A stretch of 22,426 nt of DNA from Terriglobia bacterium (GTDB lineage Bacteria > Acidobacteriota > Terriglobia > UBA7540), in the NCBI GenBank assembly GCA_020072925.1, contig JAIQGA010000056.1, forward strand, positions 1 through 22,426, in the 5' to 3' direction. Shown in pieces: positions 6,028-22,426 of this stretch (positions within the stretch are counted from its first letter, which is position 1; the number at the start of each line of letters is the position of its first letter). The notes under the pieces were generated by a model. It ran no database searches, had not been told where the DNA came from, and saw only the letters and a list, made by a program, of their open reading frames with translations. The position numbers and the translations under genes were made by a program.

Positions 6028-6192
6028 GAATCGGGAGTCGGGAGTCGGGAGTCGGGAGTCGGGAGTCGGGAGTCGGAAGTGGGAAGCGGGAAGTAAGTGA
6101 AGACAAAGCCCGGCCATCCCGGGGCGAATCGGTTGGCGGTTCTTGCCTACCTACTACCTACTTGTTGCCCCCCGACTTCCTACTTCCGATTC
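6028..6192. repeat. Heptamer tandem array (GGGAGTC x6 at 6033-6074, then degenerate GGGAAGn copies) forming an imperfect inverted repeat with 6147-6192 (CCGACTTCCTACTTCCGATTC).
   Basis: Direct reading of the sequence. The reverse complement of the right arm, GAATCGGAAGTAGGAAGTCGG, matches the left arm GAATCGGGAGTCGGGAGTCGG at 18 of 21 positions. It sits between tmk and holB. Confidence 0.85.
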
Positions 6193-6834
6193 TCTTTCCA
6201 AGAAGTCGTCCACCAGCCTCCGAATTTCCGCCTGGACCTCCGCGATGGGCCGGTCCGCGCGTACCACCTTGACGCGGCTTGGTTCCTGCCGCGCGATGGC
6301 CAGATACCCGGCGCGAACGCGTGCGTGGAATTGTCGACCCTGCGCTTCAAAGCGCCCGCGCCGGGAGTTTCGGCGGGTCTCGCGACCCTGCGCTCTCGCC
6401 AGGGCTATCCGCGGGTCCAGGTCGAGCACGATGGTCAAGTCAGGCTGAGTATCTCCACAAACAATCTGGTCGAACGCCCGCACCGTCTCTACCCCCAGCT
6501 TCCGCCCGTAGCCTTGGTAGGCGAGTGATGCATCATTATACCGGTCGCTGACCACCGTTTCGCCACGGCCGAGGGAGGGCCGGACCACTTCTTCAAGATG
6601 CTGCGCGCGCGCCGCGTAGATTAGCGCCAGCTCCGCCATAGGCGCCAATCGCTTAGTTGACAAATCCAGCAGGATTCCGCGAATGCGCTCTCCGACGCGA
6701 GTCCCGCCGGGCTCGCGCGTGGCTCGCAAGCGGTGGCCGAGTTTGCGCAGGTATTGGACCAGCAGGCGATGCTGCGTGCTCTTGCCTGTTCCGTCGATGC
6801 CCTCGAGCGTGATGAAAAGGCCGGGCTGTTTCAA
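6154..6834 (-). CDS. tmk: Thymidylate kinase
   Basis: N-terminal FITLEGIDGTGKST P-loop, DRY motif region (VVSDRY), and 226 aa length. The ORF opens at TTG 6834; no in-frame ATG upstream. The last ~12 codons lie in the repeat arm. Confidence 0.9.
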   Translation of the reverse strand: MKQPGLFITLEGIDGTGKSTQHRLLVQYLRKLGHRLRATREPGGTRVGERIRGILLDLSTKRLAPMAELALIYAARAQHLEEVVRPSLGRGETVVSDRYNDASLAYQGYGRKLGVETVRAFDQIVCGDTQPDLTIVLDLDPRIALARAQGRETRRNSRRGRFEAQGRQFHARVRAGYLAIARQEPSRVKVVRADRPIAEVQAEIRRLVDDFLERESEVGSRGATSR

Positions 6835-6842
6835 ATGGTTAT

Positions 6843-6941
6843 CCGTTGTCCGTGGTTCGTTGTCAGTTGTTTCCCGACATCCCTCACGTGGCCCAAGTGG
6901 TTCCTCCGCGCAACGAACAACTGGCGACGGACTACGGACGG
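6843..6941. repeat. Imperfect palindromic element built of heptamer units (CCGTTGT CCGTGGT TCGTTGT CAGTTGT ... AACAACTG GCGACGG ACTACGG ACGG).
   Basis: 8-bp perfect CAGTTGTT/AACAACTG core plus degenerate flanking arms. Its left arm begins 9 nt beyond the tmk TTG start codon (6834), in the divergent tmk/yggS intergenic region. Confidence 0.6.
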
Positions 6942-7032
6942 TCGAGGAATCCTAGCATTGCACAGCGCGAAATAACAAGGCGCCAGCAATCATGCCAACG
7001 AATGGTAGAATGTCCCGACCCGCGGAAATGCT

Positions 7033-7725
7033 ATGGTCAACATCCCGGAGAACGTCGCGCGCGTGCAGGAACGAATCGCCGTGGCGTGCCGCCGCAGCGG
7101 GCGGCGCGTGGAGGACGTGAGGCTGGTCGCCATTTCGAAGACTATGCCTTGTGAAGCCATTCGCGCGGGCTACGAGGCGGGACTGCGCGAATTCGGCGAG
7201 AACCGCGTTCAGGAAGCCAAGGCCAAGCGGCCCGCCCTGTCCGATCTGACAGCCACCTGGCACCTCGTCGGTCATCTCCAGACCAACAAGGCCAAGCCGG
7301 CGCGGGAATTGTTCCATTGGGTTCATTCCGTGGATTCACTGCGGCTGGCGGAGAAGCTTGCGCAGGCCGCGCCATGCAGTTCGGATCGCTTGCCGGTACT
7401 CCTGGAGGTCAACCTGGGCGAGGAGACCACCAAATCGGGTGTCCGCACTGAAGAGATTGCGGCGCTTGCCGAACGGGTCGCGCAGTTTGAAACCTTGGAA
7501 CTGCGCGGCCTGATGGTGATTCCGCCCTTCTTCGAAGACCCTGAGAAAGGCCGCCCGTACTTTCGGCAGCTGCGTGAGTTGGCGAAGGAAATTGAATCGC
7601 GCAAGTTGCCTAACGTTTCCATGCGGGAACTCTCCATGGGCATGAGCCACGATTTCGAGGTGGCCATCGAAGAAGGGGCCACGATCGTCCGCGTGGGGAC
7701 GGCAATCTTTGGGCCGAGGCAATAA
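7033..7725 (+). CDS. yggS: YggS-family pyridoxal-phosphate homeostasis protein (COG0325/PLPHP)
   Basis: 230 aa; ISKT lysine region (VRLVAISKTMP), HLVGHLQTNKAK, the ELRGLM block and C-terminal RVGTAIFG are hallmarks of the family. Confidence 0.9.
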   Translation: MVNIPENVARVQERIAVACRRSGRRVEDVRLVAISKTMPCEAIRAGYEAGLREFGENRVQEAKAKRPALSDLTATWHLVGHLQTNKAKPARELFHWVHSVDSLRLAEKLAQAAPCSSDRLPVLLEVNLGEETTKSGVRTEEIAALAERVAQFETLELRGLMVIPPFFEDPEKGRPYFRQLRELAKEIESRKLPNVSMRELSMGMSHDFEVAIEEGATIVRVGTAIFGPRQ

Positions 7726-7726
7726 A

Positions 7727-7903
7727 TGAAGGCTGAAGTCAGGAGCCAGAACTCAGAAGTCAGAAGGATGAAGGATGAAGGACACTCCCCCGGCGGCGCT
7801 ATTTGATTGCCGGGATGTGGCGTCAACTGGCATCGGACAACTGACAACTGACGACTGACGACTGAGCACTGACTTCTGACCCCGGACTCCGGACCACGGA
7901 CTT
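7727..7903. repeat. Composite repeat: 10-bp perfect inverted repeat CAGAAGTCAG (7754-7763) / CTGACTTCTG (7869-7878) plus several heptamer tandem arrays (GATGAAG x3 at 7766-7782; nACTGAC x5 at 7834-7868; CCGGACn x3 at 7882-7901).
   Basis: Direct reading. It occupies the whole yggS-yggU intergenic space. Confidence 0.8.
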
Positions 7904-7906
7904 CTT

Positions 7907-8224
7907 ATGACTCCGAGCTTTCAACTCGACCGCGAGAACGTTTCCTTCTGGCTGAAAGTGAAACCGCGGTCGGCGCGGGAACGCCTGGGAGTCGACGCGG
8001 CCGGGGAATTACGCTTGGAGTTGCACGCCCCGCCCACGGAAGGGCAGGCCAACGAAGCCTGCGTGCAGTTTTTCGCCCGCGCGCTGCGGCTGCCCCAGGC
8101 GTGCGTGGTCATCCTTTCCGGTTCGAAGTCACGTCGCAAGCTTATCCGAATTACCGGCCACTCGGCCCAGGAAACCGTTGCACAGTTGAAGCGATTGTTG
8201 CAGTCTCAACCGGCAAGTAGGTAA
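7907..8224 (+). CDS. yggU: DUF167 (YggU/UPF0235) family protein
   Basis: 105 aa; the NEACVQFFARAL block and overall length fit DUF167. It is positioned downstream of yggS, as in the E. coli yggS-yggT-yggU cluster. Confidence 0.75.
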   Translation: MTPSFQLDRENVSFWLKVKPRSARERLGVDAAGELRLELHAPPTEGQANEACVQFFARALRLPQACVVILSGSKSRRKLIRITGHSAQETVAQLKRLLQSQPASR

Positions 8225-8228
8225 GAGA

Positions 8229-8375
8229 ATCGGGCCATCGGGTCATTGATCCATTGAGTGATTTGGTGATTGGGTGATTGAAAAAACAAATCCGAATCGT
8301 GGCGCGTCCATTCAATCACCAAATCATACAATCACTCAATCACCCAATGGCCAAGTGGCCCGATCACCTAATCGC
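8229..8375. repeat. Large palindromic element: ~55-bp arms built on GTGATTG/CAATCAC units, separated by a ~27-nt spacer.
   Basis: Left arm 8229-8283 and the reverse complement of 8311-8375 share GTGATTTGGTGATTG and GGGCCA..GGG segments. It is homologous to the element at 12105-12236. Confidence 0.85.
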
Positions 8376-8413
8376 CAGATCATTCGACTCGTCACTATAG
8401 CGCGGAGCCGACA

Positions 8414-9703
8414 TTGAGTTTCCGCCAACGCCTCGAGGAAATCCGCACGGGATTCAAGCCTGCCTTCTGGGTGGCGAACACCACGGAACTGTTCGAGCGC
8501 CTGTCGTACTATGGGGCAAGCGCGGTCCTGGCCATTTATCTGAGCGAACAACTGCACTTTTCCAAAGAGCTTACAGGCTGGATGATTGGAATTTTCGGCT
8601 TTGTGGTCTGGTTCCTGCCCGTGCTGGGGGGAACGCTAGCGGACCGCTTCGGCTTCCGGCGCGCGCTGATGTTCGCTTATCTGGTGATGACCGTCGGCTA
8701 TTTCCTGTTGGGTTCGCTCTCGGCGCCGTGGATGGTTGCGGCGCGCCAGGCTCTGACCGACAAATGGCTCGTATTCGCGATTCTCATGATCCCCGCGCTG
8801 GGACCGGCGGTGGTCAAACCCTGCGTGGCGGGCACGACGGCGCGCGCCTCCACGGAGAATGTCCGCTCCATCGGTTATTCGATTTACTACACGCTGGTGA
8901 ATGTCGGCGGCACGCTGGGGCCGGTCATGGCCTGGCTGGTGCGGAAAAAACTAGGGTGGGGCATTGAAAATGTCTTCCGCGTTTCCGCCCTCAGCGTTTT
9001 CCTGATGTTTTGTGTGACGCTGCTCTTCTTTCGCGAGCCGACCCAATCCGGCGAACAGAAAGTGGCCAGCGTCGCGGCCGCCATCAAGAACATGTTTGTA
9101 GTGCTGGGCAACTTCCGTTTCGTCCTGTTCCTGTTGATCTTTTCGAGTTTCTACGTGGTCTTCTGGCAGGAATTCATTTCCGCCCCGCTGTTTTTGCGCG
9201 GCTACGTCGATCCCAACGCCAACGCTGACCTGTTGCTTTCGATTGACGCGCTGACGGTGATCTGCTTCCAGATTTTGGTCAGCTATCTGACCCGCAAGAT
9301 TCCCGCGTTTTCGGCGATGACGCTGGGATTGCTGATTTCAAGCCTCTCGTGGCTGATTCTGGCCCTTTATCCCACGACAGTGGGCCTGATCGGGTCGCTT
9401 GTGGTCCTGGCACTCGGCGAGATCACCCAGTCCGCGCGCTACTATGAATACGTCTCGCGGCTGGCGCCGCCGGGCCAGCAGGGGCTCTACATGGGCTACG
9501 CGTTTCTGCCCATTGCCATCGGTTACTTCATCGCCGGGCCACTGGGCGGTTACCTGCTGCACTATTTTGGCGATATCCTGCGCCGGCCGCAGCAGATGTG
9601 GTGGGTGGTCACCGCGGTGGGGATTGTCGGCACGGTGTTGATGCTGGCGTACGACAGAGTTTTTCGGCCGGGCGGAGAAAAGGGATTAGGGATCAGGGGT
9701 TAG
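8414..9703 (+). CDS. Proton-dependent oligopeptide transporter (PTR2/POT family, MFS)
   Basis: The N-terminal ELFERLSYYG signature of POT transporters; ~12 predicted TM helices; TTG start with GCGGAG SD-like sequence upstream. Confidence 0.85.
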   Translation: MSFRQRLEEIRTGFKPAFWVANTTELFERLSYYGASAVLAIYLSEQLHFSKELTGWMIGIFGFVVWFLPVLGGTLADRFGFRRALMFAYLVMTVGYFLLGSLSAPWMVAARQALTDKWLVFAILMIPALGPAVVKPCVAGTTARASTENVRSIGYSIYYTLVNVGGTLGPVMAWLVRKKLGWGIENVFRVSALSVFLMFCVTLLFFREPTQSGEQKVASVAAAIKNMFVVLGNFRFVLFLLIFSSFYVVFWQEFISAPLFLRGYVDPNANADLLLSIDALTVICFQILVSYLTRKIPAFSAMTLGLLISSLSWLILALYPTTVGLIGSLVVLALGEITQSARYYEYVSRLAPPGQQGLYMGYAFLPIAIGYFIAGPLGGYLLHYFGDILRRPQQMWWVVTAVGIVGTVLMLAYDRVFRPGGEKGLGIRG

Positions 9704-9713
9704 GGATTAGCAG
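9682..9713. repeat. Short telomere-like tandem repeat GGGATTAG GGATCAG GGGTTAG GGATTAG overlapping the stop codon of the POT gene.
   Basis: Direct reading; about four 7-8-nt units containing TTAGGG. Confidence 0.6.
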
Positions 9714-9808
9714 GATAATGGAAAACCCGTTCGCCCTGTCATTCTGAGCGCAGCGAAGAATCCCCGCATTTGAAGAATCAAGGAAATGAAAGACAGAAAG
9801 ATACCAAA

Positions 9809-10393
9809 ATGAAAAACGGACCGCTTACAAGTAGATTCGAAGAGGCATTTTGCTTGGCTTCCCGTCTGCACGCGACGCAGAAGCGGAAGGGCACAGAAAT
9901 TCCCTACATTGCCCACCTCATGAGCGTTGCAGCGCTGGTGATCGAAGACGGCGGCGACGAGGACGAGGCCATCGCTGGTCTGCTTCATGACGCCGTCGAA
10001 GACCAGGGCGGAAGAGAAACACTGGAAGAGATTTGTCGCCGCTTTGGCGAACGAGTGGCGGGAATCGTCTATGGCTGCACGGATGCGGAGACTCTACCCA
10101 AGCCGCCGTGGCTCGAGCGAAAGAAGCGCTATGTCGACCACATTCGCATTGCACCTCCGGAAGTCCGTCGCGTCTCGAGCGCCGACAAGCTCCACAACGC
10201 GCGCGCCATCCTGGCCGATTTCCGGCATGAGGGCAACCGTTTGTGGGAAAGATTCACCGGCAAGCGCGACGGAACGCTCTGGTATTACCGCGCCCTGGTG
10301 CAGGCCTTCCAGGCAGCGGGCTCGACCCCCATCGTCGAGGAGTTGGACCGGGTCGTGAGCGAATTGGAACGTTTGGTTGCGGAGAGTAAGTGA
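9809..10393 (+). CDS. Small HD-domain (p)ppGpp-hydrolase-like protein (RelA/SpoT-type HD; small alarmone hydrolase-like)
   Basis: HL..VA...., the LLHDAVEDQGG motif and the ADKLHNARAI motif match the RelA/SpoT hydrolase HD domain. It is ~195 aa with no synthetase domain. The ORF is open from TTG 9770; the first in-frame ATG is 9809. Confidence 0.65.
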   Translation: MKNGPLTSRFEEAFCLASRLHATQKRKGTEIPYIAHLMSVAALVIEDGGDEDEAIAGLLHDAVEDQGGRETLEEICRRFGERVAGIVYGCTDAETLPKPPWLERKKRYVDHIRIAPPEVRRVSSADKLHNARAILADFRHEGNRLWERFTGKRDGTLWYYRALVQAFQAAGSTPIVEELDRVVSELERLVAESK

Positions 10394-10409
10394 CGCGGTG
10401 GGAGGCACC

Positions 10410-11591
10410 ATGAACCTGGCGGAAATTCAAGCAGCTCTGCGCGATTCGGGCCTGGATGGCTGGCTCTTCTACGATCACCACCATCGCGATCCGATTGCCT
10501 ATCGCGTGTTGAAGATCAATCCCCCGATGTGCACGCGCCGCTGGTATTACCTGATTCCGGCTTCGGGAGAACCCGCGAAGCTGGTGCATCGCATCGAGCG
10601 CGGCAACCTCGAGGGCCTGCCGGGAACCGTGTACGAGTACTCTTCCTGGCGCGAGCAGCACGACAAGCTGCGAAAGATTTTGGAAGGGAAGAAGCGTGTA
10701 GCAATGGAATATTCGCCGCTCAACGACATTCCCTACGTCGGGCTGGTGGACGCGGGAACCATTGAGCTAGTGAAGGGTTTGGGCGTGGAGGTGGTTTCCT
10801 CCGGTGACCTTGTGCAGCTTTTCGAGGCGCGCTGGTCTGACGCCGCGCTGGCCTCGCACCTGGCGGCGGGGAAGGTGGTTCACGCCGCGGTCAACGCGGC
10901 CTTCGCGATGATTCGGGACGCGGTGCGAGGCGGCAAAGCGCTCGGCGAGTACGAAGTCCAGCAGGAAATCTCCCGCGTATTCGAAGCGGGCGGCGTGATC
11001 GCGGACGAACCGGCCATCGTCGCCGTGAACCGCAACACGGCGAACCCGCATTACTCCCCCACGCGGGCATCGTCGCTGCCCATTCGCGCCAACGATTTCG
11101 TCCTGCTTGATGTCTGGGGAAAGTTGCCGACTCCGGGCGCCGTTTATTTCGACATTACTTGGACAGGATTTGTGGGCGAAGAGGTCCCGCGCCGCTATGC
11201 CGAGGTTTTTTCCATTGTGCGGGAGGCCCGTGATGCTGCCGTGCGTCGCGTCACGGAGGCGCAGGCAGTCGGCCGGGCGCTGCACGGTTACGAGGTGGAC
11301 GACGCGGCGCGCGAGGTCATCTCGCGGCATGGTTATGGTGAGAACTTCGTGCATCGGACCGGACATTCTATTGGCGAAGACGTGCACGGCAATGGGGCCA
11401 ACATGGATAACTTCGAAACGCGTGACCAGCGAAACATCGTTCCGCGCACCTGCTTCTCGGTTGAGCCGGGAATCTACCTGGCGGAGTTCGGCGTGCGCAG
11501 CGAGGTCAATGTATACGTCGAGGCAGGCGGGGCGCGCGTTACCGGGGAAATTCAGCAGGCCATCGTGCCGATCCTTGCCGCTGCGCGCTAA
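10410..11591 (+). CDS. M24-family metallopeptidase (Xaa-Pro aminopeptidase / creatinase-like)
   Basis: Metal-ligand blocks LLDVWG..YFDITWT, HRTGHSIGEDVH, SVEPGIY and RSEV. GGGAGG SD 6 nt upstream of ATG 10410. Confidence 0.85.
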   Translation: MNLAEIQAALRDSGLDGWLFYDHHHRDPIAYRVLKINPPMCTRRWYYLIPASGEPAKLVHRIERGNLEGLPGTVYEYSSWREQHDKLRKILEGKKRVAMEYSPLNDIPYVGLVDAGTIELVKGLGVEVVSSGDLVQLFEARWSDAALASHLAAGKVVHAAVNAAFAMIRDAVRGGKALGEYEVQQEISRVFEAGGVIADEPAIVAVNRNTANPHYSPTRASSLPIRANDFVLLDVWGKLPTPGAVYFDITWTGFVGEEVPRRYAEVFSIVREARDAAVRRVTEAQAVGRALHGYEVDDAAREVISRHGYGENFVHRTGHSIGEDVHGNGANMDNFETRDQRNIVPRTCFSVEPGIYLAEFGVRSEVNVYVEAGGARVTGEIQQAIVPILAAAR

Positions 11592-11671
11592 GTTGTGTTA
11601 ACTTCGTTGGTTCGGAGCGCCACATCCGCGCCTTTTCTGGGGCCGCGCGGCGCCCCTTGCCTTCGGAAACT

Positions 11672-12106
11672 ATGGCCGGAAAAAACGTTCAGGAAGCAAC
11701 CGCCGAGAAAGCGAAACCCGCCGCGGCGCCCCACCCGCCGCTCGCGCGGATGATTCGCCTCTGCGTCGCGGCCTGGCTAATTCCGGGGTTTGGGCATTTC
11801 TTGCTGGGCCGGAAATGGCGAGCGCTTATTCTCTTCGTCTCGATCCTGGCCATGTTTTTCCTGGGCCTGGCGATGCAGGGAGAGTTTTTTCCGACCAATT
11901 CGGCCTCTTATCTCGAAACCCTGGGCTATCTGGGCGAGATGTGCGTGGGCGTCGCGATGCCGGCGGCGAAGTTCTTCGGCTACGGGGGCGGTAATCCGTT
12001 CTTCGTCAGCTCTGATTACGGCACCGCCTACCTTGTTTCCGCCGGCATGCTGAACGTGCTCGCCGTCCTGGACAGCTACGACATTGCCCTGGGCAGAAAA
12101 CCGTGA
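11672..12106 (+). CDS. Integral membrane protein of unknown function
   Basis: 145 aa with 3-4 hydrophobic segments (LIPGFGHFLLG.., ALILFVSILAMFFLGLAM, VSAGMLNVLAVL) and coding-like GC3. Start at the first ATG; the ORF is open from TTG 11657. Confidence 0.5.
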   Translation: MAGKNVQEATAEKAKPAAAPHPPLARMIRLCVAAWLIPGFGHFLLGRKWRALILFVSILAMFFLGLAMQGEFFPTNSASYLETLGYLGEMCVGVAMPAAKFFGYGGGNPFFVSSDYGTAYLVSAGMLNVLAVLDSYDIALGRKP

Positions 12107-12236
12107 TCCATCGGGTGATTGAGTGATCGGGTGACTCAGCGATTGAAGAGGCGGAGCAGGCGGGTTTGCTTTTTCAATCGCAAAATCACACAATCACCAA
12201 ATCACTCAATGAACAAATGATCCAATTATCCTGATG
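12105..12236. repeat. Palindromic GTGATTG-unit element, second copy of the family seen at 8229-8375.
   Basis: The reverse complement of the right arm (GGATCATTTGTTCATTGAGTGATTTGGTGATTGTGTGATT) closely matches the left arm of the 8229 element (TGATCCATTGAGTGATTTGGTGATTGGGTGATT). Confidence 0.85.
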
Positions 12237-12407
12237 GCCCTGACTCACTTCCCCGCTCTCGTACTGTTTGCTCTCCTGGTCTCCGTGGTGTTCGGCCTGC
12301 TGAGCAAGGACACGCCGCGCGATCGAGTGATTTACGGCGCCAAGGTTTTTGGCGCCTTCGTCGGCGTGGCCCTGGCGCTGGGCTGGCTGATGTACTTCCT
12401 GCCTTGA
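12234..12407 (+). CDS. Possible 57-aa two-helix small membrane protein
   Basis: ATG..TGA ORF (MALTHFPALVLFALLVSVVFGLLSKDTPRDRVIYGAKVFGAFVGVALALGWLMYFLP) with strongly G/C-biased third codon positions, as in neighbouring genes. No clear SD, and its start lies inside the repeat arm. Confidence 0.35.
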   Translation: MALTHFPALVLFALLVSVVFGLLSKDTPRDRVIYGAKVFGAFVGVALALGWLMYFLP

Positions 12408-12531
12408 GTCCCCGTGAGGACATCCTCCGAACGTCACCCCGGCGCGACGGACCATTTGTAGCACGGGCATCCCGCCCCTGAGCACGGCCAAGGTGGCCGT
12501 GCTACGTGCACGACTACATTTGCGCTTTGCC

Positions 12532-12560
12532 TTGACTTCGCTTCGCCCGCGTCTTAGAGT
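12532..12560 (+). promoter_or_regulatory. Candidate sigma70 promoter TTGACT-N17-TAGAGT upstream of the NfeD/flotillin operon
   Basis: Hexamers with 17-nt spacing ~85 nt upstream of ATG 12647. This is inference only. Confidence 0.35.
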
Positions 12561-12646
12561 ATGCCTCGACCGAAGGATCTCCTCGCCCGGACAACGCGCT
12601 GAGTAGTTGGCGAGCGCGCGTTCTCGCCTGACGGAGGCTTTGCCAC

Positions 12647-13198
12647 ATGGCTTCGCTGGTGGGTTTGTCAGCATTCGCAATCTTCCTCGGAATCGCGGCT
12701 CTGGGTTTTTTCTTCCTGATTTTCAGCCTGTTTTTTGGAGAGTTGTTTGGACACGCGGACATCGGCGGCCACGACGCTGATTTCCATGGCGACCTTCACG
12801 GCGTAAGCTTTTTCAGTTCGCGGGTCATGAGCGTTTTCGTGACCGCGTTCGGAGGCTTTGGCGCTATCGGCATTCATCTTGGCTACGGCATCGGCCTCAG
12901 CACGGGAATGGGCCTGGCCGGAGGGCTGGTTTTCGGCGCCTTGATCTATCTCTTTGCGGCCTTCCTTTTCAGCCAGCAAGCTTCGAGCGACATCCGCGTG
13001 AACGACCTGCTCGGCAAGACGGCCCAGGTCATCGTGGCCATTCCACGTGGTGGCCTGGGGCAGGTAAGCTGCGTGCTCGGGGAAAGCGTCGTGGAACGAA
13101 TCGCGCGCTCGGCGGATGGGGAAGAAATACCCGCGAATGCGGCGGTTAAAATTCAGACGATCGTCGGAGAGACCTGCGTGGTGCGCCGCGCGGAATAA
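12647..13198 (+). CDS. NfeD-like (YuaF-type) membrane protein with C-terminal OB-fold, partner of flotillin
   Basis: N-terminal TM helices followed by a C-terminal beta-rich segment (GKTAQVIVAIPRGGLGQVS..GESVVERIA.....IPANAAVKIQTIVGETCVV) typical of the NfeD short form. It lies immediately upstream of an SPFH/flotillin gene. ACGGAGG SD. Confidence 0.7.
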   Translation: MASLVGLSAFAIFLGIAALGFFFLIFSLFFGELFGHADIGGHDADFHGDLHGVSFFSSRVMSVFVTAFGGFGAIGIHLGYGIGLSTGMGLAGGLVFGALIYLFAAFLFSQQASSDIRVNDLLGKTAQVIVAIPRGGLGQVSCVLGESVVERIARSADGEEIPANAAVKIQTIVGETCVVRRAE

Positions 13199-13264
13199 TC
13201 ACAGCTTCGGGAGGCGCGGAAGTCATCGCCGGCCTCGAAGCATGAACTCTTAAGGAGAACTCCC

Positions 13265-14863
13265 ATGCCAGCCGTTTCGCAATTCTTCATTCCTATCGTC
13301 GTAATGGGTGTGGTCCTGGCCCTGATTGTGGCCATGGCCCTCTTCAGCCGCAATTACATCAAAGTGCCGCCCAACGCTGTGGCGATTCTGAGCGGCCGCA
13401 AACACAAGCTCGAGGACGGCTCGATGGTCGGCTATCGCACGGTGATAGGCGGTGCAACGTTCCGCTTCCCGCTGCTCGAGCAAATCGATTATCTATCCCT
13501 CAACGTCTTCACCATTCCGCTGGAAATCAAGCGCGCTTACACACTGAAGGGCGTCCCGATTTCGGTCAAGGCGGTAGCTAACGTGAAGATTAAGGGCGAC
13601 AAGCTCTCGCTTCGCGCCGCCGCCGAACGCTTCCTGGGGATGACCCACGACCAGATCCAGCGGGTCATCTTCCAGACGCTGGAAGGCCACTTGCGCTCGA
13701 TTCTCGGCACGCTGACGGTCGAAGAAGTGAATAGCGATCGCCAGAGCTTCGCGCAGAAGCTGACCTCCGAGGCGGCGGTGGACCTGGAGCGCATGGGCAT
13801 TGGCGTGGACGTGCTGACCATCCAGGACATCAGCGATGAGGAAGGCTATCTCGATGCGCTCGGCAAAAAGCGCACGGCCGAAGTGAAACGCGACGGCACC
13901 ATCGGCGAAGCAGAAGCCACGCGCGATGCCAAGATCAAATCCGCGCTCGCCATGCAGGAAGGCGAGAAGGCGAAGTTCGACGCCGACGCCAACATCGCCT
14001 CGGCCCAGCGCGACTTCCAGGTGAAGCAGGCGCAGTTCATGGCGGAAGTTGAGATGGAGAAGGCCCGCGCGGCCCAGTCGGGCCCGCTCGCCGAAGCCAA
14101 GGCGAGACAGGCTGTCGTCGCCGAACAAGTGCGCGTGGATAAAACGCGGACCCAGGAGCAGATTTCCGTTCAGGAGCAGGAAGTGCTCCGCAAGCAAAAG
14201 GAATTGGAGGCGACGGTCATCAAGGCGGCGGAAGCGGAACGGCAGGCGGCGATTCTGCGTGCTGAAGCGAAGAAGCAGGCGGCCATCCTGGAAGCCGAAG
14301 GCCAGAAGACCGCGCAGATCGCCCTCGCGGAGGCCGAGCAGACCAAACTCACGCAGGAAGGCTTGGGCCATGCGGCGGCCATCGAAGCGCAAGGCCGCGC
14401 CGAAGCGTCCAAGGTCGAGGCGCTGGGCCTAGCGCAGGCTCGTGCCATCGAGGCGCAGGGCGTCGCGGAAGCGCAGGCCATTCTGAAGAAGGCCGAAGCG
14501 TGGAAGCAATTCAACGAGGCGGCCAAGCTGCAAACCATCCTCGAGAAACTTCCCAGCGTCTTGCAGGCTTCCGCGGCCATTTTCGGCGCCGTGGCGGCGC
14601 CACTGGGCAATATCGATAAGGTTGTGGTCATCGAGCAGGGTAATGGCGCGGGCGGCGACGGCGGCACGGGGGGCATCGGCCGCATCGCTCGCACCGGCCC
14701 GGCGCTGGTCTTTGGCCTCCTGCAGCAACTGCAGGCCATGGGATTGGATGTTCCCACGATGCTCGCTCAGCTCGGCGTGGGTGGCGGCAAGCTGACTGAA
14801 GGGACGAAGCCGGTGGAGACGGCCGCTGCGGCCTCCGGCGCGTCCGACGCCGGAAAGAAATGA
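13265..14863 (+). CDS. Flotillin-like SPFH/band-7 protein (FloT/YuaG-like)
   Basis: N-terminal TM anchor, SPFH domain, and a long Ala/Glu/Gln-rich coiled-coil region with EA repeats. AAGGAGA SD. Confidence 0.85.
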   Translation: MPAVSQFFIPIVVMGVVLALIVAMALFSRNYIKVPPNAVAILSGRKHKLEDGSMVGYRTVIGGATFRFPLLEQIDYLSLNVFTIPLEIKRAYTLKGVPISVKAVANVKIKGDKLSLRAAAERFLGMTHDQIQRVIFQTLEGHLRSILGTLTVEEVNSDRQSFAQKLTSEAAVDLERMGIGVDVLTIQDISDEEGYLDALGKKRTAEVKRDGTIGEAEATRDAKIKSALAMQEGEKAKFDADANIASAQRDFQVKQAQFMAEVEMEKARAAQSGPLAEAKARQAVVAEQVRVDKTRTQEQISVQEQEVLRKQKELEATVIKAAEAERQAAILRAEAKKQAAILEAEGQKTAQIALAEAEQTKLTQEGLGHAAAIEAQGRAEASKVEALGLAQARAIEAQGVAEAQAILKKAEAWKQFNEAAKLQTILEKLPSVLQASAAIFGAVAAPLGNIDKVVVIEQGNGAGGDGGTGGIGRIARTGPALVFGLLQQLQAMGLDVPTMLAQLGVGGGKLTEGTKPVETAAAASGASDAGKK

Positions 14864-14989
14864 AGCTGCCCTCGCGCTTCGCGCCGCCGGTTTAGGGAAG
14901 GACTCAGGATCCCGCAGTCGTGAACTCGCCACACCACGTCCGGTGCGCAGGACTCTCGTGTCGACTTCCGTGTTCGGAAGGGAAACAAT

Positions 14990-15454
14990 ATGCCCTCCTG
15001 TCAGCTTACTTCCAAGACCAACAACGCTGATCCCGACGTACTGGTTGTGCATTGCAGCGACCACCGACTTCAGGCGGCGTTCTACGAATTCCTGAATCTC
15101 AAACTAAACCTCAACGAGAATTACGACCTGCTGGTACTTCCCGGCGGGCCGCAGTGCCTGACGCTGGTCGAGTATCTTCCCAAGTTTTCCTGGGCAGGAT
15201 GGAAGTGGGTGCGGTTCCTGGTGGACAGCCACGATCTCAAGCGCCTGATTCTGATTCAGCATCAGGACTGCGCCTGGTACAAGGACCTGCCTCTGCACTT
15301 GCACTCCTCGACGGAGCCGCGAAGCCGGCAGGAAGAAGACCTGCGGCGGATTGGCCAAACCCTGCGCAAGGAGCGCCCGGAACTGGCCCTGGAACTCTAT
15401 TACGCCGGGTGGAACGCTCAGGACGAAATCACCATGGATACAGTTTCCGCCTGA
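14990..15454 (+). CDS. Short divergent beta-class carbonic-anhydrase-like protein (metal-binding CxDxR ... HxxC motifs)
   Basis: VLVVHCSDHRL (CxDxR after a beta-strand) and LILIQHQDCAW (HxxC after a beta-strand) about 70 residues apart, matching beta-CA zinc ligand spacing. YDLLVLPGGP sits in place of the GDxFVxRNAGN block. Its stop codon overlaps the next gene's start (TGATG at 15452-15456). Confidence 0.45.
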   Translation: MPSCQLTSKTNNADPDVLVVHCSDHRLQAAFYEFLNLKLNLNENYDLLVLPGGPQCLTLVEYLPKFSWAGWKWVRFLVDSHDLKRLILIQHQDCAWYKDLPLHLHSSTEPRSRQEEDLRRIGQTLRKERPELALELYYAGWNAQDEITMDTVSA

Positions 15455-16716
15455 TGCCCACCTATTCACAAATCGTCTGGAGCGGCGCGATGGCCATGCT
15501 GATGGGCTTGCTGATTGGCCTGGAGCGCCAGCATTCTCAGAAAGCCGATGAGCCCCTCTTTGCGGGCTTCCGGACGTTCCCGGTTATCACTTTGACTGGC
15601 TTCCTCGCCGGGCTGCTGGCTAAAGCGGGGTTTATCTGGGTCTTGCCGGTGGCGATGGCAGGGGTTTGCGCCGTCGCGGTGGCGGCGTATTACGTCACCG
15701 CTCAGGGCCAGCACAAGGGCGCCACCACGGAGTTCGTCGCCATCCTGGCTTTTGTCCTCGGCGCGCTCACGGCCTTCAATTTCGTGATTCCCGCCGCGAC
15801 TTTTGCGGTGGTCACCACGCTGCTGCTTTCGATCAAGGCGCCCCTCCATCGCTTCGCGGAAAAGATTCAGGAAGAGGAAATCTACGCGATCCTGAAATTC
15901 GGAATTGTCACGGTGATCGTGCTGCCCCTGCTTCCGAACCGCACGTTTGGGCCGTTCCAGGTTCTCAACCCGCGATTGATCTGGCTGATGGTCGTGTTGA
16001 TTTCCGCGGTGAGCATGGTGGGCTACGCCTTGATGCGCTTTATGGGCGCCCGGCACGGTATCGCGGTGACCGGGATGCTGGGAGGCCTGGCCTCGAGCAC
16101 GGCCACGACATTCGGGCTCTCGCAGAAAGCGCGTGAGGCGGAGGACTCCCTGGCCAAGTTTTTCGCCCTGGGGATCGTGATTGCCTCCACCATCATGTTT
16201 CTCCGTATGCTCATCTTGACGTTTGTCGTGGATCCTCATCTGGGGCGCGCCCTTGTCGTTCCGATCATGGCTCCCGCGCTGGCAGGTGTGGGGATAGCCC
16301 TCTACCTCTGGTTGAAGAAGCCCGGCACTCAGAGCGAGGCCGGACTCCGCGTGCGCAACCCCATGGATCTTTGGACGGCGATCAAGTTCGGTTTGCTATT
16401 TGCGGTTGTGCTGTTTGTCTCCCGCGCGGCGTTCCAGTACTTTGGCTCTTCGGGAGTCTACATTGCCGGAGCGCTGGCGGGCATGACCGATGTCGATGCT
16501 TTCACGATTTCCGCCGCGCGGCTGGGGCAGGAAAATGTCTTGGCGGCCAGCACCGCCAACGCTTCGATTCTTCTGGCTGGAGCGATGAATACGCTGGTCA
16601 AGGGTGGCATCGCGGCCGTTCTGGGCGGCCGCGCGCTGCGCCGCGTCATCATTCCCCTTTTTGGTATCCTGTTTTTCGCTGCGCTCGTGAGCTGCATCGT
16701 CGTCGCCCGCACTTAA
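15454..16716 (+). CDS. MgtC/SapB-family membrane protein with C-terminal DUF4010-like region
   Basis: N-terminal GLLIGLERQ motif characteristic of MgtC-family proteins; ~420 aa and polytopic. The ORF is open from 15052, but the upstream part overlaps the previous gene in another frame and is not protein-like. Confidence 0.7.
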   Translation: MPTYSQIVWSGAMAMLMGLLIGLERQHSQKADEPLFAGFRTFPVITLTGFLAGLLAKAGFIWVLPVAMAGVCAVAVAAYYVTAQGQHKGATTEFVAILAFVLGALTAFNFVIPAATFAVVTTLLLSIKAPLHRFAEKIQEEEIYAILKFGIVTVIVLPLLPNRTFGPFQVLNPRLIWLMVVLISAVSMVGYALMRFMGARHGIAVTGMLGGLASSTATTFGLSQKAREAEDSLAKFFALGIVIASTIMFLRMLILTFVVDPHLGRALVVPIMAPALAGVGIALYLWLKKPGTQSEAGLRVRNPMDLWTAIKFGLLFAVVLFVSRAAFQYFGSSGVYIAGALAGMTDVDAFTISAARLGQENVLAASTANASILLAGAMNTLVKGGIAAVLGGRALRRVIIPLFGILFFAALVSCIVVART

Positions 16717-17276
16717 ATGTTTCTCGATCACGCTCCGCGTTCCCACGAATAGTGATGACGCCTCGGATCGCCACTCCTCCCTTTGCCGACAAGCAATCTT
16801 AACTTGGGTGTCCTCAACCCCGGGCGAGAGGTTTGGGCGTGCCGACGCCGGGGAGGGTGGCTTGCGCTGCGAGGGCCTTCGCGACCGGAAGCCTTTCGGG
16901 TTCGATTAAGTAACGCGGCGGCTTCAGCACCGGGATCTCAAAATAGTTCTCGAGGACGATGCGCGCCGGAACTTGCAGGATATCCGGTCCGCAGTCACCG
17001 GCCGCGACACTCCCGCTCAGACAGCGGAACCGCCCGAATAAGCGCGCCGCTGCGCCTGAAGCCCAACCTTATCATCGGCGGCTATGGGCACTTCACCTAT
17101 CACTTCGATTACTGGGACCGACGGGAAGCAATTGTGACACTCACACCCTGGTGCCGAAGCTCCCCGAATTGAGGTGGTTACTGTAGCGCCGGCTCCGTGA
17201 CCCGCCCGAGTTTTGTATCCCCTCAGTTCAGAGGTTTTCGCAAGGAATCTGTTTCAGGATGATCGAAAGTCATGCT

Positions 17277-20027
17277 TCAAAAACTCGATTCAAAATCCCA
17301 TTGCCCGGAGCCCACCTTGAAGACGGCGCGGTCCCTTTCCTGGCGAAGAAGCTCGACGCCCGCATGCCGTGCCGCCACTTCTCCGTCCAGCATGACCTGC
17401 TCGGAAGAGCGTGCCGGAACAGACACTGTCGCCGTGGTGTTGGGGGGAAGCGTTACCGAAAGCGTGAAGCGGCCGTCTTGCTTCGTCCAATGGCTGGCGA
17501 TTAAGCCTCGGATCGAGTCGTAGCTGGCGTTGGCCCAGGTCAAGTCTCCAGCCGGCTGCGGATTGATGACGATTCTCTTGAAACCCGGTCCGGTCGGGTC
17601 CGTGCTGATGCCGGCCAGGTCGTGATAGAACCACTCGATGATCTGGCCCAGCATGAAATGATCCTGTGAAGACCGAGGGTCGGCATTCCAGGCTTCGGTC
17701 AGGCTGGTCGCTCCCATTTTCAACTGGTAGCCGTAGCCTGGCTTGTCAGATTGGTTGTTTATATCGAAGATTACATCGGAGCGCCCTCCCTCCGCGAGCG
17801 CGCGCAGGAGGTAGCGGTAGCCGACGTCGCCGGCGGTCAGCGCGTTGCCGTGTCGCCGCACGTCGCGGACAATGTTCGCCAGCACGGCGGCGCGGTCCTT
17901 CCGCTCGGCCAGGCCCATGACAAGGGGAAGGGCATTGGCGCACTGCGAACCTGTGGCATATTGCTCTTTCTCCTTGTCGAAGAATTTCTGATTGAACGCG
18001 GCGCGGATTTGCGAGGCCAGCGTCTGATATTGTCGGGCGTCATCCGCCTTCCCCAGGAAAGCGGCCACCTGAGCCAGAATTATCGCGTCCTGGTAATAGA
18101 ACGCCGTTGCCGTCAGTGCCACAGGAGTCAGTTGAGCTACCCCGGGTGGTTTCGGCCCGAGATCGTACCAGTCTCCAAGTCCATAGGAGAGGATGTGATC
18201 GGCCGCGCGCGTGCCGAGGTAAGCGACGTAATGCTTCATCGCGTCGTAGTGCCTGCGCAGGAGGTCAAGGTCCGCCGTCCACTCGTATTGCTGCCAGGGA
18301 ACCAGGATGAAGGCGCTGCCCCATTCGGGCGAATCGCGGAAACCATCCTGGAATACGGTATATTCCGGCGCGATGTCCGGTACCAAGCCGTTTGGCAACT
18401 GGCTGTCCGCCATGTCGGACATGCCTTTCGTGAACAGCCGCGCCAAGTCAAAGTCGTAGCGCAGCGACGGGCCGTTGAGGTGATACTGCTCGAGCCAGCC
18501 CAGCCGCTCGCGGTGCGGGCAATCGGTGAGAACACTCATCATGTTGCTGATCTGCGCCCAGCGGACGAGCCGGTCGATGCGGTTGAACAGTTTGTTTGAA
18601 CATTCGAACTTCCCGACCGGCGGGGAGGCGGAGTGGACCACGACGCCATCAAGGGACTCGATCACGGGAAGGCGCTGGCCCGAGGGCGCGGAACATTCAA
18701 CTTGCAGATAACGCGCGCCATGGTAATAGAACTTTGGGAACCACGTCTCCGTCCAGTCCCCCGCCAGCGTATACTGCCAATAAGCCGGGGCCAGGTTGGG
18801 CTCGGCCGACCGGCGGTCCACCGAACCGTCTTCCTTCAGGAGTTCGGCGGGAACGATTCTGACCGCCGATCCCGAGGGGCCCCGAACCGTGAGCTTCGGA
18901 ATCAGAGCCGCGTTTTGGCCCAAATCGTAGACCGCGACGCTCGGGCCGAGGCGCCTGACTCCGACGGGCTTAAGCACGTCAAAGGCCCGGATGGGCGGTG
19001 CGGCGGCGGACAGCCCTTTGAGCTCTCCTCCGGGGCCCTCGACGATACGGGCGGGCGGCCACTTCGAGTCATCGAACCCGGGCTGATTCCACTCGGACTG
19101 CACCAGCCGTGCATCGTAGTCCTCACCGCCGTACACGCACGAGAAGGTGATGGGGCCGGCGCTGGTACGCCATTCTCCGTCGGTCCCTATAATCTCCCTT
19201 CTGCCGTTGGTGTACTCCAGGCGAAATTGCATGATGGCTTTGAGTGGGCCAAAGGAACCTTTGAACTTCGTATAACGCTTCCCCTCGACGTTGTACATGC
19301 CATTGCCCAGCAGCAATCCTATGGCATTGCGCCCTTCTTTCACCAGACCCGTCAGGTCGCGCGTATCATAAAGGCAGGTCTTGTCGTATTTCGTCCAGCC
19401 GGGCGCGAGGAGATCGTCGCCTGCCTTTCGGCCGTTCACCGACAACTCGTAGTATCCAAGGCCGGAAACGTAAGCCAGCGCGCGCTTCAGTCCGGGTTGC
19501 ACCGTGAACTCTCGCCGCACCAACAACGTTTCACTCGGTTGCGAGGCCGCGATCCAACGGGCGTGCCAATCTGCCGCATTCAGCAAGCCCATGGTCCACG
19601 ACGCCGGCTGACTCCACGCTGAACCTTTACCTTCCTGGTCCCAAACGCGCACTTTCCAGAAAACCTGCTGGGAAGACTCCGGGCGCTTGCCGCGATATGG
19701 GATTTGAATGGTTTCATCCGAAGCTACTTTGCCCGTATCCCACAGGTCGCCGCGGTCGTTCGCCAGAGTCTCGGCGGTTGAGGCGGCCAGAATCCGGTAC
19801 GCCGTCTGGCGCTGATTGCGCGCTGTGCTCTCGAGCTTCCAGAATAGGCGTGGCGTGGCCACATCCACACCGAGCGGATTGGAAACGTACTCGCAACGCA
19901 AGTCTGTCACGGCAAGCGGCGAGGCTGTTTCGGCCTTTGCCAGGTGCGCGCTTGACCCAACCCCGGCCAGGACACTGATAGCCAGCACCGAAAGCAGCGG
20001 CACGACTCTCCGAACGTATTGGTTCAT
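17277..20027 (-). CDS. Alpha-L-rhamnosidase, glycoside hydrolase family 78 (secreted)
   Basis: The N-terminal domain signature LRCEYVSNPLGVDVATPRLFWKL...RQTAYRILAAS...GDLWDTGKV.SDETIQIPYRGK...VFWKVRVWD..G..SAWSQPASWTMGLL is typical of bacterial GH78; ~915 aa. Signal peptide after MNQYV (start 20027, GAGGGAAG SD). The ORF is open to 20048. Confidence 0.9.
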   Translation of the reverse strand: MNQYVRRVVPLLSVLAISVLAGVGSSAHLAKAETASPLAVTDLRCEYVSNPLGVDVATPRLFWKLESTARNQRQTAYRILAASTAETLANDRGDLWDTGKVASDETIQIPYRGKRPESSQQVFWKVRVWDQEGKGSAWSQPASWTMGLLNAADWHARWIAASQPSETLLVRREFTVQPGLKRALAYVSGLGYYELSVNGRKAGDDLLAPGWTKYDKTCLYDTRDLTGLVKEGRNAIGLLLGNGMYNVEGKRYTKFKGSFGPLKAIMQFRLEYTNGRREIIGTDGEWRTSAGPITFSCVYGGEDYDARLVQSEWNQPGFDDSKWPPARIVEGPGGELKGLSAAAPPIRAFDVLKPVGVRRLGPSVAVYDLGQNAALIPKLTVRGPSGSAVRIVPAELLKEDGSVDRRSAEPNLAPAYWQYTLAGDWTETWFPKFYYHGARYLQVECSAPSGQRLPVIESLDGVVVHSASPPVGKFECSNKLFNRIDRLVRWAQISNMMSVLTDCPHRERLGWLEQYHLNGPSLRYDFDLARLFTKGMSDMADSQLPNGLVPDIAPEYTVFQDGFRDSPEWGSAFILVPWQQYEWTADLDLLRRHYDAMKHYVAYLGTRAADHILSYGLGDWYDLGPKPPGVAQLTPVALTATAFYYQDAIILAQVAAFLGKADDARQYQTLASQIRAAFNQKFFDKEKEQYATGSQCANALPLVMGLAERKDRAAVLANIVRDVRRHGNALTAGDVGYRYLLRALAEGGRSDVIFDINNQSDKPGYGYQLKMGATSLTEAWNADPRSSQDHFMLGQIIEWFYHDLAGISTDPTGPGFKRIVINPQPAGDLTWANASYDSIRGLIASHWTKQDGRFTLSVTLPPNTTATVSVPARSSEQVMLDGEVAARHAGVELLRQERDRAVFKVGSGQWDFESSF

Positions 20028-20370
20028 TCTGAGCTTCCCTCTCTCCATGGCTTCAACTTTGGAGTATCGGCCTCGAAACGACGAAACCCTCTAGCGGCCG
20101 GCCCGGGGACATTTAAGGGCTTCGCCTTTGAGGATGTCAAATGTTTTTGACCAACTCGAATGCTTGCCCCTCAATTGCCTATCCCTTGACAAGCTGGCGT
20201 TGTAGCACTAGAAGGGAGGGCCAGGGCCCATGCCGGGGCCGGCGTACCGCGGGGGCCGAAGGGAAGTATACGCCCTCAGAATGCGCTAGGAGGAACCTAG
20301 CACGGTGGGTCTGTAGGAAGATTCAACCGAACCGGGCCGTGCGAGAAAGGAAGGTTGGACACAAACTCAC

Positions 20371-21870: not shown

Positions 21871-22159
21871 CGGCAGCACGAGGCGCGCGTTTGCCGGGGT
21901 GTCAAAATTGAATTCTTGGCGGGACTCCCCTGGCACGCACACCAAGGCATGTTAGCAACCTCCGACAGGGCAGGGGGTTCTCCTTGGTACGTTAGCCCGA
22001 AACGTTCTGTCTGTGAGCGACCTTTCCAGTAGGTACAACGAGACCTATGCGAGCCTCTCATTCCATGGGATGTGAACGATGGCGACCGAGCTTGTGCACC
22101 CGCCGTGGGACCTTCAGCCAGCGTGTCTTCCGCGGAGAGGGTATAATAGGGACATACTT

Positions 22160-22426
22160 GTGGAAACAGAATCTAAGATTCGAAAGGTCGCGTTTCTCGG
22201 CGACTACCTGCCGCGTAAGTGCGGCATCGCGACGTTCACAACCGATCTGCTTGTGGCCGTGGCAGCGGAGCACCCCCAATGCCAGTGCTTCGCAGTTCCG
22301 GTCAATGACATCGACGGCGGTTACGAGTATCCGGACGTAGTTCGCTTCGAGATTGAAGAGCAGGATCTGACATCCTACCAGCGCGCGGCGGACTTCATTA
22401 ACATCAGCAACGTGGGTATCGTATGC
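22160..22426 (+). CDS. Glycosyltransferase (GT4-like) N-terminal fragment, continuing beyond the window
   Basis: Frame open to the window end: (V)ETESKIRKVAFLGDYLPRKCGIATFTTDLLVAVA.. resembles GT-B/GT4 N-termini. The start is ambiguous: GTG 22160, with a TATAAT hexamer at 22142-22147 upstream, or ATG 22079. Confidence 0.45.
   Translation, partial: METESKIRKVAFLGDYLPRKCGIATFTTDLLVAVAAEHPQCQCFAVPVNDIDGGYEYPDVVRFEIEEQDLTSYQRAADFINISNVGIVC

Follow-up and report, generated by a model that had tools for sequence, protein, structure and literature searches.

Long hairpins formed by inverted 8-nt repeat arrays in intergenic spacers of a Terriglobia contig

It is established that Xanthomonas genomes contain approximately 185 arrays of the GGGAATC heptamer each, including 70–75 convergent pairs; about 90% of the arrays are intergenic, at a mean distance of 28 nt after the upstream open reading frame (ORF), and related species carry them at corresponding intergenic positions with extensive differences in length and sequence (Rehm et al. 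2015, PMC4692102). The (GGGGAYT)n heptamers of Nostoc represent the same type of convergent arrays (PMC4692102), and the class of long simple sequence repeats (SSRs) with a 5–11-nt unit goes back to Mrazek et al. 2007, with slippage explaining heptamer over-representation, as far as that study is quoted in PMC4679880 and PMC4692102. Here we describe two long hairpins, H1 and H2, in a 22,426-nt chromosomal contig of a Terriglobia (Acidobacteriota) metagenome-assembled genome (MAG), the whole of which is hereafter called the window. Both hairpins are formed by inverted arrays of an 8-nt unit and belong to a population of such structures, with units of 7 or 8 nt, that is spread across this Terriglobia lineage.

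Several other systems invite comparison. The ERIC/IRU (127 bp) and Correia elements have a full-length consensus and defined termini, in the case of Correia with a TA target duplication. An intrinsic terminator is a short GC-rich stem with a 3–8-nt loop and a U-tract, and 'I-shaped' hairpins lacking the U-tract have been proposed for high-GC bacteria. The REP/BIME elements of E. coli and Pseudomonas are 20–40 bp long, carry a GTAG/CGTC head, have one sequence per family and flank a RAYT gene (Di Nocera et al. 2013, PMC3733652). The TAACTGA repeats of Beggiatoaceae are located just upstream of gene starts, with one inverted case among 170 sets (MacGregor 2015, PMC4679880).

Structure and homology of the two hairpins

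H1 is a long imperfect hairpin at positions 8229–8364 with 54-nt arms (8229–8282 and 8311–8364, 78% complementary) around a 28-nt spacer; H2, at 12109–12211, has 44-nt arms (12109–12152 and 12168–12211, 75% complementary) around a spacer of 15 nt. A general repeat finder and Tandem Repeats Finder (TRF) resolve the arms into tandem arrays with an 8-nt period and the units GTGATTGN and NCAATCAC, so that the 7-nt unit GTGATTG proposed in the preliminary description of this DNA has to give way to the octamer GTGATTGN. In both hairpins the left-arm unit is ATTGNGTG (equivalent to GTGATTGN) and the right-arm unit is NNCAATCA, and each of the four arms is a period-8 array of 3–9 units.

As delimited by the repeat search, TRF and folding, and read on the plus strand, the 5' arm of H1 (8229–8282) comprises about 6.75 units, namely ATCGGGCC ATCGGGTC ATTGATCC ATTGAGTG ATTTGGTG ATTGGGTG and a terminal ATTGAA. 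The loop that follows (8283–8310) is non-repetitive; its 5' part GAAAAAACAAATCCG, whose first letters still belong to the final arm unit, has its counterpart in the reverse-complemented H2 loop. The 3' arm (8311–8382) consists of nine NNCAATCA units, paired over 8311–8364 and continuing unpaired over 8365–8382. In H2, the 5' arm (12109–12152) reads CATCGGGTG ATTGAGTG ATCGGGTG ACTCAGCG ATTGAAGAGGC; the spacer (12153–12167), delimited also by comparison of the loops, extends the stem by a GC-rich apex, and the 3' arm (12168–12231) is made of NNCAATCA-type units, paired over 12168–12211 and followed by a degenerate continuation (12212–12231) that stops 3 nt short of the ATG at 12234. Thus, the right-hand arrays run on unpaired to approximately 8382 in H1 and 12231 in H2, the tails after the hairpins being CACCTAATCG and ATGAACAAATG. 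The overall size of the elements is 130–150 bp, and with the array tails they occupy most of their post-gene spacers of approximately 140 bases. The segment GATCACCT (8365–8378, in the unpaired tail of H1) is one that we take to equal GAUCACCU of the 16S rRNA 3' end, the GGTGATC units being complementary to it; this is probably a coincidence, as the other unit types lack it.

The heptamer GTGATTG is present 10 times in the window, compared with 3.0 ± 1.6 times in shuffled sequences (none of 100 shuffles reaches 10), and seven of the ten occurrences fall inside H1 and H2. As RNA, H1 folds with −69.6 kcal/mol on the plus strand (z −6.7) and −74.2 kcal/mol on the minus strand (z −6.7), and H2 with −54.7 (z −4.9) and −52.5 kcal/mol (z −3.6), respectively. 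As DNA, H1 is strongly structured (z −6.6/−5.8) and H2 weakly (z −2.2/−1.7), since the H2 stem depends on G-T pairs. H1 and H2 are hence a real feature, beyond chance.

The two hairpins are also related to each other. The left arm of H1 (8237–8279) and the right arm of H2 (12184–12226) are 86% complementary over 43 nt. The H1 loop aligned to the reverse complement of the H2 loop gives a score of 10, reached by none of 2000 shuffles, compared with a score of 2 in the direct orientation, reached by 932 of 2000; the loop sequence common to both is approximately 15 nt long. As the likeness reaches into the non-repetitive loop, H1 and H2 are truly homologous copies, mutually inverted. The preliminary description, which had reported two homologous palindromic elements with similarity in the opposite-arm orientation, the same architecture and a position just after plus-strand stop codons, is borne out in these respects: arm repeats and loop homology were found for both elements, the complementarity of 8237–8279 and 12184–12226 links opposite arms, both copies are inverted 8-nt arrays around a short spacer, and the stop codons are located as follows.

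H1 starts 5 nt past the TAA (8222–8224) of the yggU/DUF167 gene (7907–8224, plus strand, 105 aa; Pfam PF02594, E 3.7e-20) and ends 32–50 nt ahead of the TTG start of an MFS/POT-type transporter gene (8414–9703, plus strand, 429 aa; Pfam PF07690/PF00854), whose product is 100% identical to a Terriglobia MAG protein. Upstream of H2 lies the gene of a DUF6677 membrane protein (11657–12106, plus strand, 149 aa; Pfam PF20382, E 2.5e-32), and its TGA (12104–12106) falls within the first repeat unit. The gene downstream (12234–12407, plus strand) encodes a conserved 57-aa membrane protein with no Pfam match, which also follows the repeat spacer in syntenic relatives (it was not called in L010). As the next start codon is only 3–20 nt away from the end of H2, there is no room for a promoter after it. 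The complete plus-strand order is yggS (7033–7725), yggU/DUF167, H1, the MFS/POT transporter, an HD-domain protein, an M24 peptidase, DUF6677, H2, the 57-aa membrane protein, an NfeD-like protein and flotillin. No tRNA genes were found in the window, and no Rfam family matched at the gathering score anywhere in it. The 239-nt spacer behind the 57-aa gene (12408–12646) is non-periodic and strongly structured (−90 to −99 kcal/mol); it holds a perfect hairpin rich in GC, AGCACGGCCA-AGG-TGGCCGTGCT, which brings to mind the REPs beside a RAYT-like gene in the relative L134 (see below), and a promoter-like site was called in it at 12532–12560.

Repeat hairpins at orthologous sites, across the lineage and beyond

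We compared eight syntenic genomes, namely the window, L007, L008, L009, L133, L134, L135 and L136, the MFS proteins of the relatives being 88–94% identical. In each of the eight, both orthologous spacers are occupied by a repeat array, which in most of them folds into a long hairpin; the exceptions are L134 and L136, where the H1 hairpin is weak or missing, and L008 and L135, where H2 is short. Octamers of the GTGATTGN type occupy both sites in the window, L007 and L133, and GTGACNA heptamers occupy both sites in L009 and L135; L008 combines the GTGAC type at H2 with a mixed hairpin at H1, and L134 and L136 have GTGATTG at H2 and unrelated arrays at H1. Thus, the unit type turns over at a fixed site. 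The unit number changes as well: the left arm of H1 has approximately 11 units in L007 against approximately 7 in the window, at 94% MFS identity. At the level of a single strain, H1 is identical in six other contigs save for one SNP in one contig, with no slippage variants at that depth. Among the five H2 orthologues of the GTGATTG type, aligned with RNAalifold, the arms are well conserved and the loops divergent.

The 9-mers common to H1 and H2 form two clean blocks that match the unit-type groups, and these groups are separate clades in the neighbour-joining trees of the MFS and M24 proteins. As H1 resembles H2 in at least two clades, occasional copying between both spacers is suggested. 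A strict co-variation of the unit types at the two sites, which we also considered, is true in two clades and fails in L134 and L136, and we retain it only in the form of occasional copying.

Most neighbouring spacers in the window hold hairpins that are similar to H1 and H2 in organization and built from other 7-nt units, a fact overlooked in the preliminary description; in total, there are two GTGATTG-type copies and approximately five analogous hairpins with other units in 22 kb; REP/BIME families number tens to hundreds of copies per genome. One of them, at 6034–6199, pairs (TCGGGAG)n with (CTACCTA/CTTCC)n in 60 nested pairs, 12 of which are G-U on the plus strand, that is, antisense to the flanking genes. 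Another, at 7728–7904 between yggS and yggU, pairs (GAAGTCA / GAAGGAT)n with (CAACTGA / GACTTCT)n in 51 nested pairs. A hairpin of TCCGTTG / TCGTTGT units is situated in the divergent (5'–5') tmk/yggS spacer at approximately 6842–6941, and a 7-nt TTCATCC array at 1225–1270 in a convergent spacer is one-sided, with an inverted partner that is partial at most.

The same organization is observed across the lineage. In approximately 100 intergenic spacers, defined by the gene calls of nine syntenic loci that were fetched by exact-protein look-ups, the period-7/8 autocorrelation was at least 0.44 in roughly a quarter to a third of cases, and most of these periodic spacers fold with 30 or more nested pairs. 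In the outgroup L011 (85% identity) no spacer reached 0.44. The units differ between the spacers of one genome (TCGGGAG, GAAGTCA, CAACTGA, GTGACGA, CTGAGAG and others). Along the window the hairpins are clustered rather than uniform, since the spacers of its right-hand third (14864–22426) have no period-7/8 hairpins, unlike those at 1.1–12.3 kb. Selection for one strand at the RNA level was considered and set aside: minimum free energies (MFE) of the sense and antisense strands and G-U counts in the approximately 100 spacers gave no consistent asymmetry. Together with the antisense-strand G-U pairs at 6034–6199, this absence of strand bias is as expected of a generating process that operates at the DNA level.

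The composition of the units is not random. In a set of 52 period-7/8 array units from the window, L008, L009, L134 and L136, with the two arms of one hairpin counted separately, TGA is present on one strand in 29, compared with 11.9 ± 2.8 in letter-shuffled units (none of 1000 shuffles reaches 29). The GAC/GTC triplet is enriched too (24 vs 11.8 expected), TAA and TAG are depleted, and a 'TGAC' core recurs among many otherwise unrelated units. Units of 7 or 8 nt place TGA in all three frames, which would allow arrays to abut or overlap gene ends without long read-through tails. The beginning of arrays at stop codons or within a few nucleotides of them, taken with the TGA enrichment, shows at least some filtering by selection.

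In several cases arrays enter coding sequences. A 7-nt AGGGATT array at 9681–9710 (4.3 copies by TRF) forms the last ~23 nt of the MFS gene, stop included (…GEKGLGIRG*); the same array is found in the L007 orthologue at 1926–1955, and the MFS gene end of the outgroup L011 has a CAGGGGT array at 9461–9491. AGGGATT is similar to the repeats GGGAATC of Xanthomonas and GGGGATT of Nostoc. The right arm of the 6034–6199 hairpin (6143–6199) covers the final ~40 nt of the tmk ORF as called on the minus strand, and Tmk varies from 219 to 233 aa among relatives, which suggests that repeat arrays make variable C-terminal tails or mis-called stops.

Outside the lineage, a scan of bacterial genomes with GTGATTNN repeated three times gave at least 120 matches. 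The matches listed come from Acidobacteriota, Bacteroidota, Chloroflexota, Planctomycetota, Thermodesulfobacteriota, the candidate phyla radiation (CPR), Burkholderiales and others, and several MAGs occur among them two or three times. Among the matches listed, the Acidobacteriota loci are mostly inverted pairs starting right behind a stop codon, and the Bacteroidota arrays are mostly one-sided. Long one-sided GTGATTNN arrays of up to approximately 21 units with no inverted partner were seen in L013, L036, L112 and other Bacteroidota and Planctomycetota loci. Thus, the habit of forming inverted pairs seems to be specific to certain lineages (Acidobacteriota and some others).

A scan of metagenomes with an exact 21-mer common to the H1 and H2 arms gave 19 loci, all of them inverted-array hairpins, with every loop and context different. 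Three of the 19 are directly 5' of tRNA-Trp: the GTGATTNN hairpins in L140 (160–344) and in L145 and L149 (328–413) end approximately 6 nt ahead of the tRNA-Trp gene, and in L140 the whole ~101-bp hairpin is present in two tandem copies. As for the unit itself, GTGATT arrays formed 82 stretches in viral contigs (IMG/VR), and three permuted-unit controls formed 87, 23 and 54. We thus reject the idea that GTGATT is a special, widely conserved motif; as the controls are about as frequent in the viral contigs, its wide spread reflects generic formation of octamer SSRs and not the descent of one element.

Possible origin and role

We consider it somewhat probable (with a probability of approximately 0.55) that H1 and H2 are SSR quasi-palindromes generated by slippage and template switching, occasionally copied between spacers, and acting, if at all, as 3' or intercistronic RNA stem-loops. 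The unit number would grow by replication slippage. The inverted partner would arise, and stay complementary, by intra-strand or inter-hairpin template switching, that is, by quasi-palindrome correction or inverted duplication, and template switching or ectopic conversion might occasionally place a copy of a hairpin in a spacer nearby, in the present case at a distance of 3.8 kb. TGA-containing units would survive beside gene ends, since with them translation stops in every frame, however many units an array has. Upon transcription of the operon, each element would fold into an imperfect stem of 45–55 bp that closes the upstream cistron on its 3' side; most plausibly this stem would block 3' exonucleases in the manner of REPs, or else serve in processing or attenuation. 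The role of an mRNA stabiliser, which the preliminary description had put forward, is plausible. The geometry, with a stem starting from the stop codon, no U-tract and H2 close to the ATG, would fit a protective or attenuating operon stem better than a terminator.

A number of observations weigh against this interpretation. In the small sample of five H2 orthologues only two of 25 pairs are compensatory, and the covariation term is positive (unfavourable); with compensatory change so scant, the pairing could be a by-product of arms sharing the unit consensus. The H1 site of L134 has two non-complementary arrays and no hairpin. In L011 and L012 yggU overlaps the MFS gene, with no spacer, so that the site is neither filled nor empty, and the structure is dispensable for these genes. 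The hairpin in the divergent spacer at ~6842–6941 does not fit a purely 3'-end role. The control for unit specificity came from viral contigs, not from bacterial genomes. Finally, the template-switch and conversion steps are proposed from sequence patterns, and any RNA-level role is a conjecture from predicted folds.

The strong rival is a purely neutral origin: slippage and template switching make and erode hairpins in tolerant spacers, and these have no function as RNA or DNA. We regard this as a possible though clearly less probable explanation. The rapid change of the units, in type and in number, at fixed sites, the absence of covariation and of strand asymmetry, and the presence of hairpins in convergent, divergent and co-directional spacers are all consistent with it, as are their absence from the outgroup, where yggU and MFS overlap, and the equal frequency of arrays formed by control octamers. 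However, a neutral process does not readily explain that the DUF6677/57-aa site has kept a repeat hairpin in all eight genomes despite the change of unit, that the arms are conserved far more than the loops, or that the arrays begin at or near stop codons and are enriched in TGA units.

It is improbable that the hairpins are REP- or MITE-like non-autonomous elements moved in trans by a transposase (RAYT/Y1 or IS). Such mobility could account for two inverted homologous copies 3.8 kb apart with homology extending into the loop, for the MAGs that occur two or three times among the matches listed, and for the nearby GTGATT hairpin pairs in L141, L148 and L032, and a RAYT-like gene is present in one relative. 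On the other hand, there are no target-site duplications and no defined ends, the loops are unrelated across the 19 loci with the common arm 21-mer, close relatives differ in element length by whole units, the palindromes of the L134 RAYT-like gene are different, short and GC-rich, and a single element family cannot explain the analogous neighbouring hairpins with unrelated units. H1 and H2 are not a transposable element, nor do they constitute a new class of mobile element or RNA, or a new mechanism.

A comparably small chance is given to the hairpins being selected intercistronic devices, in which the stem would join the upstream stop to the downstream start, ribosomes would open the stem base and re-initiate (coupling or shunt), and slippage would tune expression ratios; at the DUF6677/57-aa site the downstream start lies roughly 3–30 nt from the 3' base of the stem in all eight genomes. 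As a related possibility, a lineage-specific factor might grow or maintain such 'palindromic microsatellites'. Least probable are binding-site arrays for a protein reading GTGATT every 8 nt, on dyad-symmetric DNA or, in the manner of TRAP or Csr, on RNA: the GTGAT cores show good conservation and the 2–3 positions between them vary, and an analogous idea was proposed by MacGregor for the TAACTGA repeats (PMC4679880), but equivalent spacers of the same genomes are filled by many unrelated units, one unit type gives way to another at a single site when relatives are compared, and GTGATT is not over-represented relative to the permuted controls. 

If the surveyed spacers are typical, a sizeable share of the intergenic DNA in a major soil phylum would consist of self-complementary microsatellites with a faster turnover than that of the adjacent genes. 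This would affect the annotation of gene ends, as arrays reach into MFS and tmk at the 3' end of the reading frame and give variable C-terminal tails, the prediction of operons and terminators in Acidobacteria, canonical terminators not being evident in the window, and the assembly of MAGs, as contigs may break at low-complexity palindromes. The same sites with different units in eight or more genomes also provide a comparative system, useful for studying how inverted SSRs originate and whether long imperfect stems in operon spacers influence mRNA fate. As to a protein with regularly spaced contacts, an 8-bp spacing does not put sites on one face of B-DNA, which is a further point against binding-site arrays.

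Comparison with known systems

H1 and H2 resemble intrinsic terminators in being stem-loops straight after a stop codon; the differences are stems of 45–55 bp with periodic mismatches, loops of 15–28 nt, the lack of a U-tract and the position of H2 abutting a start codon. Lacking the U-tract, H1 and H2 are no canonical intrinsic terminators. The terminator search called no site at their positions, and the region 6800–13300 has seven terminator-like sites vs 8.4 ± 3.3 in shuffled sequences. Thus, the suggestion of a transcription terminator made in the preliminary description does not hold in the canonical sense.

The likeness to REP/BIME elements consists in extragenic imperfect palindromes located after genes in operons, in either orientation, with a proposed role of an mRNA-stabilising 3' stem-loop. 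H1 and H2 differ in their size of 130–150 bp, in tandem-unit arms of 44–54 nt, in having no head, and in being unlike the REPs of L134. The GTAG/CGTC head is absent at the ends of H2, and the GTAG at 8217–8220, 9 nt outside H1, belongs to the last yggU codons. Neither target-site duplications nor defined termini nor flanking direct repeats were found at H1 or H2, and the arrays end raggedly, at different points in different orthologues. There is no RAYT gene in the window. In L134 (7290–8390) the HD-domain gene is replaced by the gene of a 126-aa RAYT-like Y1 transposase (NF047646, 78.5 bits at a cut-off of 80), with short REP palindromes rich in GC, GGGGCTTTAGCCCC, GGAGCTTTAGCTCC and GGCACGACTTTAGTCGTGCC, on either side in a REPtron-like arrangement. 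A REP/RAYT link was rejected, as the RAYT-like gene was found only in this relative and its REPs are unrelated to the GTGATTG hairpins. With neither target-site duplication nor REP head nor conserved core, and with only the repeat-built arms recurring elsewhere, the dispersed REP/MITE-like family envisaged in the preliminary description is not supported.

ERIC and Correia elements are similar to H1 and H2 in being imperfect palindromes of approximately 130–150 bp in transcribed intergenic regions, in both orientations; in H1 and H2, however, only the low-complexity arms recur, the length shifts by units, and there is no target-site duplication. With the cyanobacterial short tandemly repeated repetitive (STRR) sequences and the TAACTGA repeats they share intergenic tandem heptamers, a phylogenetically sporadic occurrence and stop codons within the unit (PMC4679880), but those are mostly direct arrays, whereas H1 and H2 are paired inverted arrays starting at stop codons. 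Our literature search found no paper with the motif or with such hairpins in Acidobacteria, an absence that is no proof of novelty.

The Xanthomonas arrays agree with H1 and H2 in every architectural feature of their class: heterogeneous tandem units of 7–8 nt, where the class calls for units of 5–11 nt in at least 2–4 copies, an intergenic position closer to the end of the preceding ORF than to the next start, paired convergent arrays with stem-loop potential, and occurrence at the same site in relatives with variable length and sequence. The GTGATTGN unit has no G3 tracts and no G-quadruplex potential; being without G-tracts, H1 and H2 are the same kind of repeat as the Xanthomonas arrays and not the same family. 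They differ further in the 8-mer unit, the Acidobacteriota host, the many coexisting units as opposed to one dominant unit, and the homology of the loops between two sites, which argues for copying between these sites. On the evidence of sequence organization, we thus regard the convergent GGGAATC arrays of Xanthomonas as the closest precedent for the hairpins described here.

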